From an uncultured Candidatus Saccharibacteria bacterium (GTDB taxonomy: Bacteria; Patescibacteriota; Minisyncoccia; Phycocordibacterales; UBA12079), in contig CAZSPC010000001.1 of assembly GCA_964608745.1 (NCBI GenBank), positions 750 to 64,749 on the forward strand: DNA of 64,000 nt, written 5' to 3'. This document shows positions 2,513 through 63,552 of this stretch, piece after piece. Position numbers and translations under genes: made by a program. Below the pieces are notes generated by a model. It saw only the letters and a list, made by a program, of their open reading frames with translations, was not told the origin of the DNA and did not search any database. Positions within the stretch are counted from its first letter, which is position 1; each line of letters starts with the position of its first letter.

Positions 2513-2607
2513 GCGTATAGTGTATAGCGTATAGCGTATAGAAAGAAATTTTGGCTTTGCCAAAATTTCTTCCCTACAACCCTAAACGCTACAACCCTAA
2601 ACGCTAT
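2513..2607 (+). repeat. family A structured repeat (gcgtatag tandem arm / aaattttggctttgccaaaattt hairpin / ccctaaacgcta arm) upstream of rplJ
   Basis: arm-hairpin-arm architecture shared with >=17 other copies. Confidence 0.7.
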
Positions 2608-3101: not shown

Positions 3102-3116
3102 TTATTAAAATAATTA

Positions 3117-3207
3117 AATAGCTAATAGCTAAAAGCTAAAAGCTGATAGTATTAAAATTTTCAAAGGAAATTTTTGCTATGAGCTACAAGCTATAGGCTA
3201 TAAGCTG
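3117..3207 (+). repeat. family A variant repeat (agctaaaagct arms) between rplJ and rplL
   Basis: atagctaatagctaaaagctaaaagctgatag ... ctatgagctacaagctataggctataagct inverted arms. Confidence 0.6.
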
Positions 3208-3215
3208 ACAAAGTT

Positions 3216-3927: not shown

Positions 3928-4254
3928 ATGAATAAAGTTTTGTTTGTTGTACCAACTTGGGAATTTACGTTAAAAAGTTTGTTGGGTTGGCCGATCGGTT
4001 TGATTTCCTTTGTTTTGTTTTTATGCGTGATTACTTTTCATATGAGTGATAAAAGCGAAGGATTGTCTTTGAGTAACTTGGAATTTGGTGATGCTGTTTT
4101 TACCCTCACTGGTTGGTTGGGTCCCTTCATATTTTTAACAGAAATGAAGCGTAACTACAAAACTTTTTTCGGAAAGATTTTTGCAGCCACCCTGTATTTC
4201 ATTTTTCCGTTGTGGTGTCTTATCCATATGTTTCGAAGTATTTTTTTTCTATAA
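3928..4254 (+). CDS. hypothetical membrane protein (108 aa)
   Basis: AGGAG SD; multiple hydrophobic helices. Confidence 0.4.
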   Translation: MNKVLFVVPTWEFTLKSLLGWPIGLISFVLFLCVITFHMSDKSEGLSLSNLEFGDAVFTLTGWLGPFIFLTEMKRNYKTFFGKIFAATLYFIFPLWCLIHMFRSIFFL

Positions 4255-4962: not shown

Positions 4963-5362
4963 AAAAATAATGAGAAAATCCCAGCGTGAGCTGGGATTTT
5001 CTCATTATTTTTCTTAACCCAGCTCATTTTTAATAATAAAGTAGATTAATCAATAAAGTTTAAAAACACCATAAGTTTTATTTAGTCGAAAATTTATTTT
5101 TTAAAAATAGGGTTGGGTGTAAAAATTCTGTCATGTTGGCGGAATTTTTTAATGTTTGAATGGGTTAATTTTAAGATGAATTTTTTGCGAAGCAAAAAAT
5201 TCATCTTAAAATCCTAAAATTAAATTATTCGAAATTAAATCGAAATTAATCACTTATCCACAACAAACAAATCTAAAAAAGTCAAAATATTGTATTATTA
5301 TAGATAACCAATTATTACAAAATAATAGGTCGCGATTTATTAGTGTAATTAAAAAATTAATT

Positions 5363-6040
5363 ATGATATTACAAACATGGGGTGAGGTACTTGCTCAATC
5401 TTTTCAAGACTTATGGCTTGGAGTAGTTTCATTTGTACCCAGCTTAATCGTTGCGATTGTTATCTTTATCGCAGGATGGGTTGTAGGTGCTCTTTTGGGA
5501 AGAGTTGTATCTCAAATTGTTAAGTCTTTGAAGGTGGACAATGCTCTTCGAAGTGCTGGAACAGAAGCTGTTTTGAACAGAGCTGGATTCAAATTGGATT
5601 CAGGAGCCTTCTTAGGAGGATTAGTTCGATGGTTTGTCATCATCGTCTTCCTTGTGGCTGCTTTTGATGTTCTTGGTCTAAGTCAAGTTAACGATTTCTT
5701 GCAACAAGTAGTTCTACTTTACTTGCCACAAGTGATTGTTGCTGTGATGATTCTTTTGATTGCTGCTTTGGTTGCAGATGCTATGCAATCAGTTGTAAAA
5801 GGATCAGCTAAGGCTGCTGAGATTCGATCAGCTAATTTCCTAGGAAATGTTACAAAATGGGCTATTTGGATTTTCGCAATCTTGATGGCTTTGTATCAAT
5901 TAGGAGTTGCTGCTGCTTTTGTTCAAACTTTGTTTACAGGAGTGGTTGTAGCGCTTGCACTAGGTACAGGACTTGCTTTCGGACTTGGAGGAAGAGATCA
6001 TGCTGGTAAGTTCCTAGACAAGATAAGTAAAGAAAAATAA
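5363..6040 (+). CDS. membrane protein with repeated conserved TM-helix motifs (MscS-N-terminal-like TM_helix repeats)
   Basis: Three similar hydrophobic repeats (IVAIVIFIAGWVVGALLGRVV / VIVAVMILLIAALVADAMQSVV / AIWIFAILMALYQLGV); higher GC than background. Confidence 0.45.
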   Translation: MILQTWGEVLAQSFQDLWLGVVSFVPSLIVAIVIFIAGWVVGALLGRVVSQIVKSLKVDNALRSAGTEAVLNRAGFKLDSGAFLGGLVRWFVIIVFLVAAFDVLGLSQVNDFLQQVVLLYLPQVIVAVMILLIAALVADAMQSVVKGSAKAAEIRSANFLGNVTKWAIWIFAILMALYQLGVAAAFVQTLFTGVVVALALGTGLAFGLGGRDHAGKFLDKISKEK

Positions 6041-6087: not shown

Positions 6088-6158
6088 ATTTGACTTTTTT
6101 CAAAGTTTTGTTAAGATGTATCAAGCTCAATTACTCTGAATGAGGAGCTTTTTATATT

Positions 6159-10149: not shown

Positions 10150-10245
10150 CTTATAGCTTCTAGCCGATAGCTTATAGTGAAAAATTTGCCTTTGGCAAAT
10201 TTTTCAAAAGAAAGCTATCAGCTATGGGCTATAATCTATAAGCTT
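10148..10245 (+). repeat. family A variant repeat (agcttatagc arms) upstream of rplE
   Basis: cttatagcttctagccgatagcttatag / gaaaaatttgcctttggcaaattttt / gctatcagctatgggctataatctataagct. Confidence 0.7.
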
Positions 10246-10280
10246 AGAAACTATAAAATCAAAAAATAAATAAAAATACT

Positions 10281-12384: not shown

Positions 12385-12570
12385 ATGGCAAAAAAATCTG
12401 TAATAGCAAGAGCAAATAAAAAACCAAAATTCTCTACAAGAATCGTGAGAAGGTGCTTTAAATGTGGAAGAAAGCGCGGATATATGAGAGATTTTGATTT
12501 GTGTAGAATTTGTTTTAGAGAATATGCGAACGAGGGAAAGATTCCTGGAGTGACAAAAAGCTCTTGGTAA
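12385..12570 (+). CDS. rpsN: 30S ribosomal protein S14 type Z (zinc-binding, 61 aa)
   Basis: [20 protein letters not shown] zinc-ribbon; operon position. Confidence 0.85.
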
Positions 12571-12584
12571 ACTATGAACACGAA

Positions 12585-12693
12585 GCTAATAGCTTATAGC
12601 CGATAGCTTATAGCCGATAGCTTATAGTGAATTTGCCAAAGGCAAATTTTTCAAAAGAAAGCTATCAGCTATGGGCTATAAGCTACAAGCTTG
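12585..12693 (+). repeat. family A variant repeat (agcttatagccgat tandem arms) upstream of rpsH
   Basis: arms tandemly repeated 14-mer; central hairpin gaatttgccaaaggcaaattt. Confidence 0.7.
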
Positions 12694-12766
12694 GTTGTGT
12701 TTGTAACAATCTGTGATAATTAACGAATATTTGGGCTGTAGCACAAGCTAGACGCCAAATAATAAT

Positions 12767-13156: not shown

Positions 13157-13165
13157 ATTTTGAAA

Positions 13166-13255
13166 AGCGTTTAGCGTTTAGCGTTGTAGGGAATAAATTT
13201 TAACTTTAGCCAAAATTTAAAAAAATCTATAACCCTAAGCGCTACAACCCTATAA
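13166..13255 (+). repeat. family A structured repeat upstream of rplF
   Basis: agcgtttagcgtttagcgttgtag ... ctataaccctaagcgctacaaccctat. Confidence 0.7.
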
Positions 13256-13267
13256 TCCTAATAAAAT

Positions 13268-14335: not shown

Positions 14336-14983
14336 ATGACAGAAGAAAAAAAGGAAAAAAATAATATTGAAAAAACAGATTCTAATCCTGCAACCCAGGA
14401 TGGACAAAAAAAGAAAGTAGAAAAAACTCCTACGGATGTTAAGACTGTCTCAAAAGCAATAGCAGACAAAAAACCAGTCAGCAAAGAACGGCCAAAAAGA
14501 ACTTTTAAGAAAAATGTCCGACCAAGAAGAAGGGCTGGTTTCAAAAGACCAAAGCCAGAATTTGATCAAAAAATTATCGATATTCGAAGGGTTACTCGTG
14601 TTGTAAAAGGAGGGCGCAGATTTAGTTTTTCTGTTGTTATGATTCTTGGAAATAAAAAGGGAAAAGTAGGTGTTGGTGTTGGAAAAGCATCAGATACAGC
14701 ATTGGCAATCGAAAAAGCAATCAGAAATGCCAAGAAGAACATGATTCAATTGAAACTTACCGAGAACAACTCAATCCCTTACGAAGTCGATGCAAAATAT
14801 TGTGCTTCTAGGGTGGCAATTCGACCGGCCAAAGGACGGGGTGTTGTTGCGGGAAGTTCGCTCAGAACAGTTTTAGAATTAGCAGGGGTAACGGAAGTTG
14901 GTGGAAAAGTAATTTCACGAAGTAAAAACAAATTAAATAATGCAAGGGCAACTATCAAAGCCTTGCAGGCTTTTAAGGGGTAA
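14336..14983 (+). CDS. rpsE: 30S ribosomal protein S5 with ~70-aa basic N-terminal extension
   Basis: Conserved RVTRVVKGGRRF and S5 C-terminal domain. Confidence 0.9.
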   Translation: MTEEKKEKNNIEKTDSNPATQDGQKKKVEKTPTDVKTVSKAIADKKPVSKERPKRTFKKNVRPRRRAGFKRPKPEFDQKIIDIRRVTRVVKGGRRFSFSVVMILGNKKGKVGVGVGKASDTALAIEKAIRNAKKNMIQLKLTENNSIPYEVDAKYCASRVAIRPAKGRGVVAGSSLRTVLELAGVTEVGGKVISRSKNKLNNARATIKALQAFKG

Positions 14984-14987
14984 GGTT

Positions 14988-15039
14988 TAAGTAGTAAGTA
15001 ATAAGAAATGAATTTTTGCCTTTGGCAAAAATTCATTCA
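14988..15039 (+). repeat. truncated family A element (taagtagtaagtaataag arm + gaaatgaatttttgcctttggcaaaaattcattc hairpin)
   Basis: arm type matches copies at 55891 and 43200; right arm replaced by family E motif. Confidence 0.55.
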
Positions 15040-16911: not shown

Positions 16912-16980
16912 AATATAAACAAAATATATTTTTCCAAAAAGGTGGGGGTCGGACCCCCACCTTTTTGGTATAATGAAACT

Positions 16981-17664
16981 ATGTCAAGAAAAAAAGTAAA
17001 ATTTAGTGTCGGATGTTTCTACCATGTTTATAACAGAGGTGTTGATAAAAGAGAGATTTTTTCTGATAAACAAGACACACTTAGGTTTATAGAGAGCCTA
17101 GATGTGTTTAATACAATAGAGCCCATTGGTAGTATTTTTGCAGAAAAGAAAAGGGGTAGGGGTCGGACCCCTACCCCACCTACCCCAAAAAAACAAAAAG
17201 GAAAGCTAGTTAATATTATCGCTTATTGTCTCAACCTAAATCACTACCATTTTGTTTTAGAAGAAATTGTTGAGGGTGGTATAAGCGAGTTTATGAAAAG
17301 GTTAGGGGGTGGTTATACGGGATATTACAACATTAAATATAAGAGAAATGGAGTTTTATTTCAGGGAAAATTTAAGACGGTGCATATAAAAAAAGACGGT
17401 CAGTTGGAATATACGGTTGACTATGTCAATTTAAACAATTTGGTTCATAAAAAATTTGACGGTACCAAAAAACATTTTTTAGACGACATTCCAGCTAGAT
17501 CTAGTTGGAATGAATATATCAATGAAAATATAAAGGGTATTTGTGGCAAAGACATTATTCTTGATGTTTACAAAAAAGCGTATAGAAGTAGAAATACATA
17601 TGAATCTAGTGCCAAAGAAACATTAAAAATGGTAAGAGAGATGAGATACGGGGATGAAAAATAA
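16981..17664 (+). CDS. REP-associated tyrosine transposase (RAYT, IS200/Y1-transposase-like) copy 1
   Basis: YHVYNRG, HUH motif NHYHFVLEE, G-YTGYYN, LFQGKFK, YVNLNNL (RAYT YIHLNPV-like); flanked by palindromes at 16941-16962 and 17665-17690. Confidence 0.75.
   Translation: MSRKKVKFSVGCFYHVYNRGVDKREIFSDKQDTLRFIESLDVFNTIEPIGSIFAEKKRGRGRTPTPPTPKKQKGKLVNIIAYCLNLNHYHFVLEEIVEGGISEFMKRLGGGYTGYYNIKYKRNGVLFQGKFKTVHIKKDGQLEYTVDYVNLNNLVHKKFDGTKKHFLDDIPARSSWNEYINENIKGICGKDIILDVYKKAYRSRNTYESSAKETLKMVREMRYGDEK
17152..17176 (+). repeat. REP-like palindrome (ggtaggggtcggacccctacc) embedded in-frame inside RAYT-1
   Basis: encodes linker RGRGRTPTPPTP; same palindrome repeated at 16941 and 17668. Confidence 0.7.
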
Positions 17665-39545: not shown

Positions 39546-39625
39546 AAGCGTTTAGCGATTAGCGTTTAGGGTTGTAGAGAACAAATTTTTACTATAACCC
39601 TAAACGCTAAGCCCTATACCCTAAT
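39546..39625 (+). repeat. family A repeat (no central mini-hairpin) upstream of rpsL
   Basis: agcgtttagcgattagcgtttagggttgtag ... ctataaccctaaacgctaagccctataccct. Confidence 0.65.
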
Positions 39626-43090: not shown

Positions 43091-43296
43091 GATTTTTATT
43101 TTCAATTACTCATCTTTAAATTTTAGTAACCTAGTTACCGGGTAACCCAAGAAAAACGGTTTTTTATTTTGTCTTATTTTCTTTTTTTTGATTATCTAGT
43201 ATTAAGTAGTAAGGTGTAAGTAATAAGTTTTCTTTTTGATTTTTCAATGGTCCGTCAGCTGACGGACCATTGAATTTTTTGTGTTAAAATAAACTT

Positions 43297-46374: not shown

Positions 46375-46552
46375 ATTTGTTTTGAACAAATATCACCAAA
46401 CACCGAGTCATTAGACTCGGTGTTTTTATTTAGATTTTTTAGTTGACTATTATTTCCGTTCTGTTATTATATTGGGATAATGCTAATGGCATTCGTTTTT
46501 TGTATTTAACCGCCTTTTTGGGGTGTTAATATAAATTATTAGAAATAATTTA

Positions 46553-46652
46553 AAGCGTTTAGCGTCCAGCGTTTAGCGTTGTAGTGAACAAATTTTGCCT
46601 TTGGCAAAATTTGTTAAAACCTATAACCCTAAACGCTAAACGCTAAACCCTA
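46553..46652 (+). repeat. family A structured repeat upstream of tuf
   Basis: agcgtttagcgtccagcgtttagcgttgtag / gaacaaattttgcctttggcaaaatttgtt / ctataaccctaaacgctaaacgctaaaccctat. Confidence 0.75.
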
Positions 46653-46662
46653 TAAAAAAATT

Positions 46663-48790: not shown

Positions 48791-48990
48791 TTGAAAATTG
48801 AATTTAATTTCGAAAAAATAAAAAATTCAGAAGCAAGGCTTCTGAATTTTTTGTTTTTTCACTATCTTTTCTATCTTTCGTCTTTGCGATCCGTCAGCCG
48901 ACGGATTCATAATCCGTCAGCCGACGGAGAAGCAATCCAGTCGCAGGTATCGCCAGGGCGAACCCAAAATTCTCTTACTCCTTATTCCTA

Positions 48991-53065: not shown

Positions 53066-53160
53066 GGAGGAATAAAGAATAAGGACTTAGGAATGTAGGA
53101 ATGAATTTTGCCTTCGGCAAAATTCATTCAAGACTTATTCCTCATTCCTTATTTCTAGGT
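53066..53160 (+). repeat. family A variant repeat (aggaataagga arms) upstream of rplB
   Basis: ggaggaataaagaataaggacttaggaatgtag / gaatgaattttgccttcggcaaaattcattc / cttattcctcattccttatttctaggtcct. Confidence 0.7.
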
Positions 53161-53229
53161 CCTAATTTAAAAATTAAGGTTAACGGTAGCCGATAATTAT
53201 CGCGGGTGAAAAGCCCAAAAACAAGAACT

Positions 53230-54072: not shown

Positions 54073-54221
54073 TAAAAAAGCATCGCCTAGGCGATGCTTT
54101 TTTATTATTTTCGTTTTCCGACTTTTCTAGTAATAAGTTGTAAGTAATAAGGATTAAGTAAAAAGGCTTTGTTGGATGATTTAAATAACTCAACCCGTTG
54201 AGTTATTTATCTTTATACCCT

Positions 54222-55890: not shown

Positions 55891-56307
55891 TCATTTCTAG
55901 TAGTAAGGTATAAGTAGTAAGTAATAAGTAAATTTTTATGGAGAAATTTGAAGATATTATTGCTTGGCAAAAATCACAAAAATTAGCTGTTTTTGTGTAT
56001 AAAAAATTTAGCAATAATAAAGATTTTAGTTTTAGAGATCAGATTCAAAGAGCATCAGTGAGTATTAGTAATAATATTGCCGAAGGTTTTGCTCGAAAAG
56101 GAAATAAAGAATTCAAACAGTTTTTGTATATAGCAAAAGGTTCATGCAGTGAAGTTCGGTCAATGTTATATCTTGCGTTAGAGTTGGATTATATTTCAAA
56201 ATCAGAATTTGACGAGTTTTATAGATTAGCAATTGAAATTTCAAAAATATTGTCAGGTCTTATTAAAAGTTTAAAATAGTCTTACTTACTACTTAATCCT
56301 TACTACT
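55891..56307 (+). repeat. family A-type repeat (taagtagtaag arms) whose loop is occupied by a second four-helix-bundle gene
   Basis: left arm tagtagtaaggtataagtagtaagtaataagta (55891-55923); right arm cttacttactacttaatccttactac (56281-56307). Confidence 0.65.
55938..56279 (+). CDS. four-helix-bundle protein (23S rRNA intervening-sequence protein family), copy 2
   Basis: IAWQKSQKLAVFVYKK...FRDQIQRASVSISNNIAEGFARKGNKEF...GSCSEV. Confidence 0.8.
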   Translation: MEKFEDIIAWQKSQKLAVFVYKKFSNNKDFSFRDQIQRASVSISNNIAEGFARKGNKEFKQFLYIAKGSCSEVRSMLYLALELDYISKSEFDEFYRLAIEISKILSGLIKSLK

Positions 56308-56339
56308 TTGCACTTGCGCGTAGCGCATGCGAAGCGCCT

Positions 56340-57326
56340 ATGCCAGAACTTCCAGAGGTACAAACAATCGTAAATGATTTAAATGAAAAGATTATCGGCG
56401 AGAGAATCGTCGATTTTTGGTCTGATTGGAAAAAAAGAGTACGGCCAAATTTTTCTAAGTTTAAAAGAGAAATTAATGGGGCGAAAATAATGGGAGTAAG
56501 AAGAATAGGAAAGCAAATTATAATTGATTTGGACCCGCCTGCCACTGCGAGGCATAAGCGGGCAAGTAACAAAAAGTCGATTTTGATTCATCTAAAAATG
56601 ACGGGATATCTTTTGTTTAAGCCTGTAGCTGGGAGCCTAAAGCCAGTAGCTAGACGAAATTTCGTCTCCGCCAAAATTTCGTCTCCGTCGTCTTTGCGAG
56701 TGCGAAGTACGAAGCAATCCAGGCTTTTTGAGGCGAAGCCGAACCACTATTTCGAAGAAAAAGTAAACCAATACATTCATCATATTATCACTTTTAAATC
56801 GGGAAACACTCTGAAGTTTTCTGATTTGAGGAAGTTTGGGTGGTTGAGTGTGGTACAAACAAGTGAAGTAGAAAACCAAAAGGAAATTCAACAATTAGGT
56901 GTTGATGCAATGAGTCGATCTTTTACTCTTAAAAAATTCAAAGAAATTTTGCACAAAAAACCAAAATCTGTTATTGGTACATTGTTATTAGATCAACATC
57001 AAATTGCAGGGATCGGAAATATTTATCGAAGCGAGATTTTGTTTTCAGCCAAAGTATATCCCGAAAGAAAGGTGTATACTTTGACTGAAACAGAAATCAA
57101 AGAAATTTTTAAGTTTACAAAATCAATTTTAAAACGCGCAATAAAAATGCGCGGTACATCCGATTCGGATTATCGTGATGCCGAAGGAAAGCCTGGAAAT
57201 TTTCAAAAAGTTCTAAATGTATATCGTCGAGAAAAACAAAAGTGTAAGAAATGCAAAACAAATTTAATTAAAAGGAAAAAATTAGGACAAAGAAGTTTTT
57301 TCTACTGTTCTAAATGTCAAAAATAA
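56340..57326 (+). CDS. fpg: formamidopyrimidine-DNA glycosylase (Fpg/Nei family) with ~40-aa in-frame GC-rich insertion
   Basis: N-terminal MPELPEVQT, H2TH region, C-terminal zinc finger CKKCKTNL...CSKCQ. Confidence 0.8.
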   Translation: MPELPEVQTIVNDLNEKIIGERIVDFWSDWKKRVRPNFSKFKREINGAKIMGVRRIGKQIIIDLDPPATARHKRASNKKSILIHLKMTGYLLFKPVAGSLKPVARRNFVSAKISSPSSLRVRSTKQSRLFEAKPNHYFEEKVNQYIHHIITFKSGNTLKFSDLRKFGWLSVVQTSEVENQKEIQQLGVDAMSRSFTLKKFKEILHKKPKSVIGTLLLDQHQIAGIGNIYRSEILFSAKVYPERKVYTLTETEIKEIFKFTKSILKRAIKMRGTSDSDYRDAEGKPGNFQKVLNVYRREKQKCKKCKTNLIKRKKLGQRSFFYCSKCQK

Positions 57327-63332: not shown

Positions 63333-63552
63333 GAAAAAATCCCTATTCACGTTGATAGGGATTAAAGAAGGGGACAAACGGTTAAGTTTGTCCCCTTTCA
63401 GCATCAGCCAGATTCGTTCTGGCAGAAAGCTGGAGGCCGGAGACTACTCAATGGTGGTACCGGCGGCCGGGCAGGTTACGGAATTTTCATTTCTAAAAAA
63501 TAAAGTTTTGGATACAGGGTGTCCTCGGGTCATGGCGGGGTCTCCTTTTTGA
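63333..63552 (+). ncRNA. GC-rich multi-hairpin region, candidate structured ncRNA or cis-regulatory leader
   Basis: about 50% GC in a one-third-GC genome; nested perfect hairpins (atccctat..atagggat, ggggacaaacggttaagtttgtcccc, gccagattcgttctggc) closed by ctgaaag/ctttcag; GGTGGTACCG resembles the T-box core; ends in T-run. Confidence 0.25.

Follow-up and report, generated by a model that had tools for sequence, protein, structure and literature searches.

In-frame inserts in a Patescibacteriota fpg gene and their likely origin from intergenic palindromic repeats

The DNA analyzed here is a stretch of 64,000 nucleotides (the window) from an uncultured Candidatus Saccharibacteria bacterium (GTDB lineage Bacteria; Patescibacteriota; Minisyncoccia; Phycocordibacterales; UBA12079), corresponding to positions 750 to 64,749 of the forward strand of contig CAZSPC010000001.1 (GenBank assembly GCA_964608745.1). 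It contains the DNA-repair gene fpg (mutM), whose product is unusually long. We consider it likely that about 43 extra residues of this Fpg come from in-frame translation of small palindromic modules, assembled in a mosaic and drawn from the repeats that populate the intergenic spacers of this Campbellbacteria-like Patescibacteria lineage, and that a second, independent GC-rich hairpin forms another, smaller insert. The content and, in one case, the orientation of the modules differ among related fpg genes.

Two inserts in Fpg and the modules they contain

The gene was intact and its product matched both Fpg domains of Pfam. Alignment with the 120 nearest homologues disclosed two separate in-frame inserts, the first of which had been overlooked in the original prediction, a note made from the letters of the window. 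The features are as follows.

56340–57326, + strand: fpg/mutM coding sequence, intact, 328 aa, PF01149 (7e-23) and PF06831 (2e-23).
56535–56573, + strand: insert 1, PPATARHKRASNK, in frame, 13 residues (66–78).
56534–56566, + strand: imperfect hairpin of insert 1, 70% GC, CCCGCCTGCC..GCGGGCAAG, coding for PPATARHKRAS(NK).
56622–56750, + strand: insert 2, 129 nt, 51% GC, in frame and stop-free, about 43 residues (95–137).
56620–56651, + strand: module A, heptamer-periodic AGCNNNN array (AGCCTGT AGCTGGG AGCCTAA AGCCAGT AGCT).
56652–56684, + strand: module B, AT-stem hairpin AGACGAAATTT(CGTC)-TCC-GCCAAAATTTCGTCT, coding for RRNFVSAKISS.
56688–56722, + strand: module D, CGTC-tagged unit resembling a repetitive extragenic palindrome (REP), TCGTCTTTGCGA-GTGCGAAGTAC-GAAGCAATCCAG, coding for SSLRVRSTKQS.
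56723–56745, + strand: module E, GC-rich tail GCTTTTTGAGGCGAAGCCGAACC with a GGCGAA(G)CC block, specific to the window.

The excess of about 40 in-frame residues claimed originally was real: the protein has 328 aa, as compared with 271–274 aa in solved Fpg/MutM structures. When it was aligned with the L. lactis enzyme, residues 1–66 matched residues 1–66 and residues 147–327 matched residues 94–270, and 80 residues of the query occupied a span of 27 in the solved protein. The 120 nearest homologues, taken from NCBI and Logan assemblies, were 281–372 aa long (median 298), and the source names of the nearest ones suggest a genome close to Campbellbacteria. The catalytic and zinc-finger residues (P2, E3, K58, M87, R164, F166, C302, C305, C323, and C326) were all kept, and the corresponding columns were invariant in an alignment of 84 Fpg sequences. 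Insert 2 was also GC-rich, as had been stated, with 51% GC vs 31% for the gene minus its inserts and 34% for the window.

Insert 1 was predicted to fold at −14.8 kcal/mol. The length of this site had a median of 8 aa and reached at least 14 aa in 19 of 115 relatives, so that insert 1 is missing from most of them. A match within 3 mismatches was found in the fpg gene of one related locus (L008), and a near-identical copy in an intergenic spacer of another (L005, at position 4054).

Insert 2, which as a whole folds at −39 kcal/mol, is not a single element but combines at least four repeat modules into a mosaic. Module A holds a 12-nt direct repeat with a 21-nt spacing; the string at 56626 that had been taken for an inverted repeat is no clean palindrome and belongs to this array of period 7. 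Module B is, in relatives, a hairpin with a 15-bp stem (AGACGAAATTTTGGC-NNN-GCCAAAATTTCGTCT). Its left arm is damaged in the window by two mismatches, and because of these two substitutions the exact 14-nt direct repeat AAATTTCGTCTCCG found at 56657 and 56674 represents a derived state. A twofold direct repeat, as claimed, exists, though the 16-mer quoted for it occurs only once (56655). In module D, the stem TTGC/GCAA closes off an inner hairpin that is variable. Module E was missing from the inserts of the relatives in the alignment of the loop.

For the comparison with relatives, the DNA of eight related fpg genes was fetched (L001 and L003–L009 among the loci named) and the loop region aligned. 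The modules were present in different subsets: A and B in L005; A, B, and D in L006; A, B, C, and D in L003 and L004, module C being a segment found only in these two; A, part of B, and D in L007; and a remnant of A in L008. The relatives' version of module A is made of other heptamers (ACAGCTG ACAGCTT ...). In all eight insert-bearing fpg genes examined, the inserts were in frame and free of stop codons. The nearest homologue (P0002, encoded at L001; 68% identity by BLAST, 78% over the aligned columns) had a loop of 14 aa, which carries no module. Among 116 homologues, the length of the loop at the second site varied from 13 to 80 aa, being 17 aa or less in 35 and at least 40 aa in 17. The extra residues were not conserved across Fpg clades and the nucleotide-level repeat signature was strong, the reverse of what an ancestral feature of the family would give.

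In other Fpg clades of the Candidate Phyla Radiation (CPR; P0019–P0057), unrelated low-complexity inserts, e.g., NFQFPISNFQ and PLLIKERENKKPSPLQGEG, were observed at the same loop, and further inserts at two other loops, including a third loop past the conserved KSG. Other repeat families, translated in the same way, are the probable source.

An AlphaFold2 model, built with 84 homologues, showed a confident Fpg fold (mean predicted local distance difference test score (pLDDT) 86, predicted template modeling (TM) score 0.82), with TM-scores, normalized on target length, of 0.88–0.90 to MutM/Fpg structures, and of 0.90 to MutM 1R2Y. Residues 95–136 were modeled as coil, devoid of secondary structure, with a pLDDT below 50 at 106–132, and the peptide of insert 2 was very basic (isoelectric point 11.8; 9 K/R vs 1 D/E). 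Insert 2 is therefore predicted to form a loop that is disordered and very basic. M87, the counterpart of the DNA-intercalating methionine of Fpg, sits in the turn between strands 79–84 and 89–94, with insert 1 ahead of the first strand and insert 2 past the second. With this order, both inserts would hang from the base of the β-hairpin, about six residues from its DNA-contacting tip, and we infer from the model that the loop of insert 2, at the end of the methionine-wedge hairpin, lies away from the DNA, its anchors (residues 94 and 138) being, by strand geometry, probably about 20 Å from it. The placement in a surface loop, expected originally, is thus what the model predicts. Most likely, the peptide encoded by the insert is a passenger that the enzyme tolerates rather than an adaptation.

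Other types of intragenic insertion were considered and rejected. Pfam gave the two Fpg domains and a weak NFACT match, with no splicing blocks that would suggest an intein; no Rfam family matched positions 56250–56800, even at E ≤ 10, which speaks against a self-splicing intron; and both are further excluded because an insert of 129 nt is too short for either. Translational bypass was rejected, as there is no internal stop codon.

Intergenic copies and nucleotide-level conservation

By sequence comparison, every module has intergenic paralogues in the window or in related genomes. Modules D and E had a common paralogue in the window, which had also been overlooked in the original prediction.

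48878–48965, + strand: paralogue of modules D and E, in the spacer downstream of rpsJ, with head TCGTCTTTGCGA, tail GAAGCAATCCAG, two nested ATCCGTCAGCCGACGGAT hairpins, and then GGGCGAACCC.

Positions 48878–48940 shared with insert 2 two exact 12-mers, collinear and on the same strand (56688–56699 and 56711–56722 in fpg), a pair that was found in none of 300 composition-matched resampled inserts. The block GGCGAA(G)CC came next in both copies, and GGCGAACC was found at 48941–48965, directly past the intergenic unit. A further, related copy of the nested ATCCGTCAGCCGACGGAT-type hairpin was present at 43247–43270. In L005, unit D occurred at 3177–3207, in the same position, i.e., the spacer past rpsJ (encoding S10). 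We observed that the window and L005 share this unit although their Fpg proteins are only about 61% identical. An nhmmer profile made from 138 units of other phyla detected the insert of the window with an E-value of 5e-7, as well as the fpg inserts of L006 and L003 and the L005 unit past rpsJ.

The core of module B, GAAATTTTGGC-NNN-GCCAAAATTTC, was found in a spacer of the window (2545–2569). Only five loci of the JGI metagenomes contained this exact core, two of them fpg inserts and three intergenic (L130–L132), which indicates that the hairpin is lineage-restricted and not widespread. The pattern (AGC....){3,}, corresponding to module A, was matched by eight arrays on the + strand of the window, as compared with an estimate of about 0.05 expected by chance. 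The seven arrays other than that of fpg were all intergenic and flanked AT-stem hairpins as long interrupted palindromes. The version of module A present in L005 had a paralogue in the L23–L2 spacer of the same locus.

In the fpg loop of L009, unit D ran the opposite way and had a palindrome of about 110 nt nested within it. With intergenic units located 2 kb downstream on the same contig, this insert shared a stretch of 49 nt at 98% identity and one of 23 nt at 96%. No other single result was as strong: such a reversed, near-identical copy requires copying within a genome, independent of the event or events behind the forward inserts. In the same locus, a cluster of reversed CGTC-like units was observed at 5150–5460. 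It comprised two units with full head and tail, plus solo heads, and the two complete units each held a different long perfect palindrome, terminator-like, the loop of the unit acting as a container for nested hairpins.

Further evidence came from the rate at which the modules have changed. Third-position identity among these genes at conserved four-fold codons of fpg was 0.38–0.62, i.e., saturated, while the identity of module B as a sequence was 0.73–0.94. We also assembled ten copies of module B. Six were from fpg genes, those of the window and of five relatives; of the four intergenic copies, one was from the window and three were from metagenome loci. In this set, 94% of the cells were paired and five pairs had changed on both sides. 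The covariation score was reached by none of 500 shuffles, and the signal collapsed when the partners were slid. One of the compensatory pairs, in L006, was non-synonymous, changing two amino acids. These modules are thus constrained or renewed at the nucleic-acid level, which is not the behavior of ordinary coding sequence, and insert 1 is no different in this respect.

In a neighbor-joining tree, insert-bearing and short-loop Fpgs were interleaved as sisters, the tree being too weak for counting events or for choosing between repeated gains and a single old insertion with many losses. The common order of the modules favors an old insertion followed by decay and deletion, while two findings favor continuing renewal: the inverted unit of L009, nearly identical to copies close by, and the excess of nucleotide conservation. 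Both processes probably operate.

The CGTC-like unit and its closest known kinds

When one genome per GTDB species was scanned for module D with the pattern TCGTCWTTGCGA-N(10-40)-GCAATCCAG, at least 120 loci were found, as compared with about 17 expected by chance in the whole collection (an estimate that assumes equal base frequencies). Among the matches listed, the hosts were Alphaproteobacteria (Bradyrhizobium, sphingomonads, and a Rickettsia), Gammaproteobacteria (Legionella and Coxiellaceae), Bacteroidales, and Patescibacteria, with genomes of 31% to 73% GC; the commonest units were 31 nt (TCGTCATTGCGAGCG[AC]AGCGAAGCAATCCAG) and 37 nt long; 118 of 153 units had an inverted partner nearby; and a few units lay in frame within long open reading frames (ORFs) of low-GC genomes. 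The unit reads TCGTC[AT]TTGCGAG...GCAATCCAG. Matches to the pattern were also observed in 69 viral or prophage contigs of IMG/VR (L135–L203). The window contained two units, one intergenic and one in fpg, both of them single and not dimers.

Four families of CGTC-tagged REPs have been described (Di Nocera, De Gregorio & Rocco 2013, BMC Genomics 14:522; PMC3733652), which include RPE-4 and RPE-6 of Rickettsia and dRS3 of Neisseria; they have stems of 8–9 bp and loops of 4–5 nt, are without a dedicated transposase, and also occur within ORFs, "many" of which serve the synthesis and repair of DNA. The present unit shares with them an unpaired CGTC tag at its 5' end (56689–56692 and 48879–48882 in the window), a stem starting with (A/T)T, and a CCA(G) tail, GCAAT-CCAG being present in both copies of the window and in all the scanned units, the scan pattern itself requiring the tail. 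Further points in common are intragenic copies, the lack of an associated transposase, and, for the units of other phyla, a prevalence of inverted dimers. Its closing stem, in contrast, is only 4–5 bp long (TTGC/GCAA in the window, ATTGC/GCAAT in the consensus) and is followed by a purine internal loop (GAG/GAA). Instead of a loop of 4–5 nt, there is an interior of about 12–23 nt in the common units of 31–41 nt, of 18 nt in the fpg copy, of 46 nt in the copy at 48878, and of more than 100 nt in L009, the size of the inner hairpin ranging from 7 nt to more than 100 nt. Other differences are that the typical peptides of the unit are not among the intragenic lists of PMC3733652, that Patescibacteria are not in the five phyla of that study, and that the units of the window are single. 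As judged by stem and loop, the unit falls outside the four described families. Of terminal inverted repeats, such as those that mark a miniature inverted-repeat transposable element (MITE), head and tail of the unit have only ATTGC.

The other close parallel is with the Rickettsia palindromic elements (RPEs; Ogata et al. 2000, 2002, via PMC10969869 and PMC3733652). These are small palindromic repeats that occur within unrelated housekeeping genes, where they are in frame and translated; they are judged compatible with the protein fold and have no known transposase. The fpg modules are similar in being small palindromes of an AT-rich, reduced genome, in frame and compatible with the fold: the insert is stop-free, the fold of Fpg is intact in the model, the insert forms a low-confidence loop, and its translation is predicted. 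The pattern of module D also matched one contig of Rickettsia asembonensis (L086). They differ in that an RPE of the RPE-1 type is a single unit of about 100–150 bp with a conserved peptide, while the fpg insert combines unrelated modules (heptamer array, AT hairpin, and CGTC unit) that have separate intergenic copies. The two also belong to different phyla. By analogy, the feature would work like RPEs and like intragenic CGTC REPs, which are the two closest known kinds.

REPs and their inverted doublets (REPINs) with REP-associated tyrosine transposases (RAYTs), and bacterial interspersed mosaic elements (BIMEs), are systems of enterobacteria and pseudomonads. The modules resemble them in being short hairpin repeats, in clustered mosaics, downstream of genes and as inverted doublets, but their head is CGTC rather than GTAG or GGAG and no RAYT was found among the 16 ORFs scanned. 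To our knowledge, there is no RAYT for CGTC repeats. The likeness drawn at the outset with the REP-in-RAYT case, in which REPs flank their own transposase gene, is a poor fit because no transposase is involved at fpg; in-frame RPEs and REPs in repair genes are more apt. GC clusters of yeast mitochondria are GC-rich palindromic mini-elements in a very AT-rich genome, show nesting, and occur in frame in var1; unlike the present modules, they belong to an organelle genome, and their sequences are unrelated.

Searches for a known family were negative. At gathering thresholds, Rfam gave no match in the whole window or in the eight related loci, and when the insert and a typical dimer were scanned permissively, all that came up were generic long-hairpin (miRNA-like) matches scoring far under the threshold. 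A full-text search of the literature with characteristic peptides (LRFARND, IASLRSQ, VIASEAKQS, and others) returned nothing, DNA strings gave only unrelated primer-type matches, and a search joining CPR with REP found no description. A paper on Coxiella MITEs (PMC5896051) was examined and its elements are unrelated. The letters of the unit are almost unchanged among the genomes of Proteobacteria, Bacteroidales, and Patescibacteria and the viral contigs. It may be speculated, though we think it improbable, that an undescribed machinery for copying or processing, shared or spread horizontally across phyla, uses the unit (TCGTC[AT]TTGCGAG...GAAGCAATCCAG) as its recognition structure. In Patescibacteria, the loop of the unit would then be a landing pad accumulating nested hairpin "cargo", and the recurrence in the Fpg loop, with the repair-gene excess reported for such repeats, would reflect a mechanistic link to repair or replication intermediates, not mere tolerance.

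Alternative explanations, neighboring sequences, and significance

The modules may have been copied into fpg by a transposase-independent or trans-acting route, of which candidates are a REP-like mobilization or, with intergenic copies as the source, gene conversion or template switching primed by hairpins. As Fpg has to keep working, selection would leave only the in-frame, stop-free copies in a permissive loop, and this loop would afterwards gain and lose modules through nested insertion and through deletion between repeats. The original prediction was of one miniature element inserted in frame in a repair gene. In essence it was right: the insertion is backed by the paralogues, the insert-free homologue, the copy in L009, the nucleotide conservation, and the prediction of a disordered loop in an intact Fpg fold, while its single-element nature gives way to a mosaic; transposition as the copying mechanism is what we infer rather than what we observed.

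It is unlikely, in our view, that the hairpins persist through a function in the fpg mRNA, as an internal RNase III/E site, a stabilizer, or a translational pause, the peptide being then a by-product. The compensatory changes that keep the stem of module B, including the non-synonymous pair, and the stability of the folded insert would agree with such a role, and hairpins of the same types are found at operon junctions, where RNA-level roles are plausible. Yet the inserts are patchy among close relatives and missing from the nearest homologue, the window's own module B stem has two mismatches, and the opposite orientation in L009 makes a different RNA. We regard as very unlikely that the insert is an adapted, basic, disordered arm, perhaps seeded by repeats and kept by selection on the peptide for DNA affinity or as a partner site. 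Its charge, the recurrence of RRNFGSAKISS-like and SSLR..QS-like peptides in six relatives, and the eight stop-free inserts would fit this idea. However, the likeness of the peptides is explained by nucleotide conservation of palindromes that are also present untranslated in spacers, and the frame is needed anyway for making the C-terminal domains. Moreover, close relatives manage without the insert, which is predicted to be unstructured, and its loop is placed, from the model, at the base of the M87 hairpin, some six residues along the strand from the tip that enters DNA. As the source is a contig of a metagenome-assembled genome (MAG) and the modules are repeated DNA, repeat-rich reads could have been mis-joined into fpg during assembly or binning. 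We give almost no credence to such an artifact: an identical protein was found on three contigs from two sources, seven more fpg genes from independent samples and assemblers had related in-frame inserts in the same loop, and a chimeric join is seldom in frame and stop-free.

Several observations weigh against an origin of the insert from mobile intergenic modules. There are only two copies of the CGTC-like unit in the 64-kb window, and no transposase (no Y1) was found among the 16 ORFs of the window scanned against Pfam, the scan having covered those ORFs only. The order A-B-(C)-D is found at the same codon position in six relatives, which could reflect a single ancient insertion that selection has retained rather than repeated mobility; a strong positive charge could be useful in a DNA-binding enzyme. 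Finally, neither a target-site duplication nor a clean insertion boundary was readable in the comparison with the insert-free loop of L001, because the flanks are too diverged from that loop. With these points taken into account, we still favor in-frame translation of intergenic repeat modules as the likely explanation.

Other sequences near fpg and elsewhere in the window are also repetitive or structured.

56306–56338, + strand: GC-rich hairpin in the fpg leader (−14.4 kcal/mol), ending 1 nt before the ATG, with none in the leaders of the relatives.
3102–3215, 10150–10280, 12560–12700, 13157–13267, 39547–39622, 46540–46662, and 53066–53170: long interrupted palindromes of the window; a further one lies at 6124–6230 of L005.

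The sequence just upstream of fpg had been said to echo a motif of the insert. The resemblance was at the level of chance (10/13 and 10/12), and the 138-unit profile detected nothing at 56306–56338. The leaders of the relatives contain ..CTTACTA-type heptamers, then AAGCGAAGC, and then the ATG. The string AAGCGAAGC(G/A) directly preceded the fpg start in the window (56330–56339) and in L004, L006, and L008, with no obvious Shine-Dalgarno sequence.

Upstream of fpg is a gene for a four-helix-bundle protein of the 23S_rRNA_IVP family (55938–56279, PF05635), which is present in L006; it is absent from this position in the syntenic L001, which has a bactofilin/DUF8173 gene there. It is flanked by inverted arrays of the CTTACTA type (TTACTTACTACTTAAxCCTTACTACT) at 55899–55924 (− strand) and 56282–56307 (+ strand), which suggests that gene and arrays form a small mobile or exchangeable cassette beside fpg. 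Heptamer arrays of this type were also noted at 54142–54160, 14980–15001, and 43204–43228.

Many spacers of the ribosomal-protein clusters hold long interrupted palindromes, folding at −33 to −74 kcal/mol, in which a heptamer array (AGCTNNN, AGCGTTT, or AGGAATN) and its complementary array enclose a central hairpin that has an AT stem and a GCC-NNN-GGC tip. In the L23–L2 spacer, the window and L005 have the same architecture with different heptamers, indicating that the arms co-vary. We know of no description of such palindromes. A segment of about 150 nt (63401–63549) forms a local GC peak (70% in a 40-nt window), for which Rfam gave nothing at gathering thresholds; it may represent either a structured RNA or DNA of foreign origin. 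A palindrome of G/C runs, GGGGTAGGGGTCGGACCCCTACCCC, was seen at 17140–17194, inside or at the start of the ORF 16942–17664.

That small hairpin repeats can lodge in protein loops was already known from RPEs and from REPs in repair genes, so that no new principle is involved, and present knowledge of Fpg catalysis is unchanged by the finding. New are the occurrence in this phylum, an architecture of modules nested in a mosaic, and the remarkable degree to which the CGTC-like unit is conserved across phyla. The 31–37 nt CGTC-tagged unit, which is without an Rfam family or a known mobilizing enzyme, offers a tractable target for studying how transposase-less REPs spread. The finding also calls for caution in the annotation of MAG proteins and in structure prediction. 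For the organisms themselves, in-frame insertion of palindromic repeats now extends to the Candidate Phyla Radiation, where a nested mosaic drawn from the intergenic repeats of the lineage can make up the inserted DNA, and this provides a concrete explanation for the heterogeneity in length of CPR proteins, such as that of a single Fpg loop of 13 to 80 aa.

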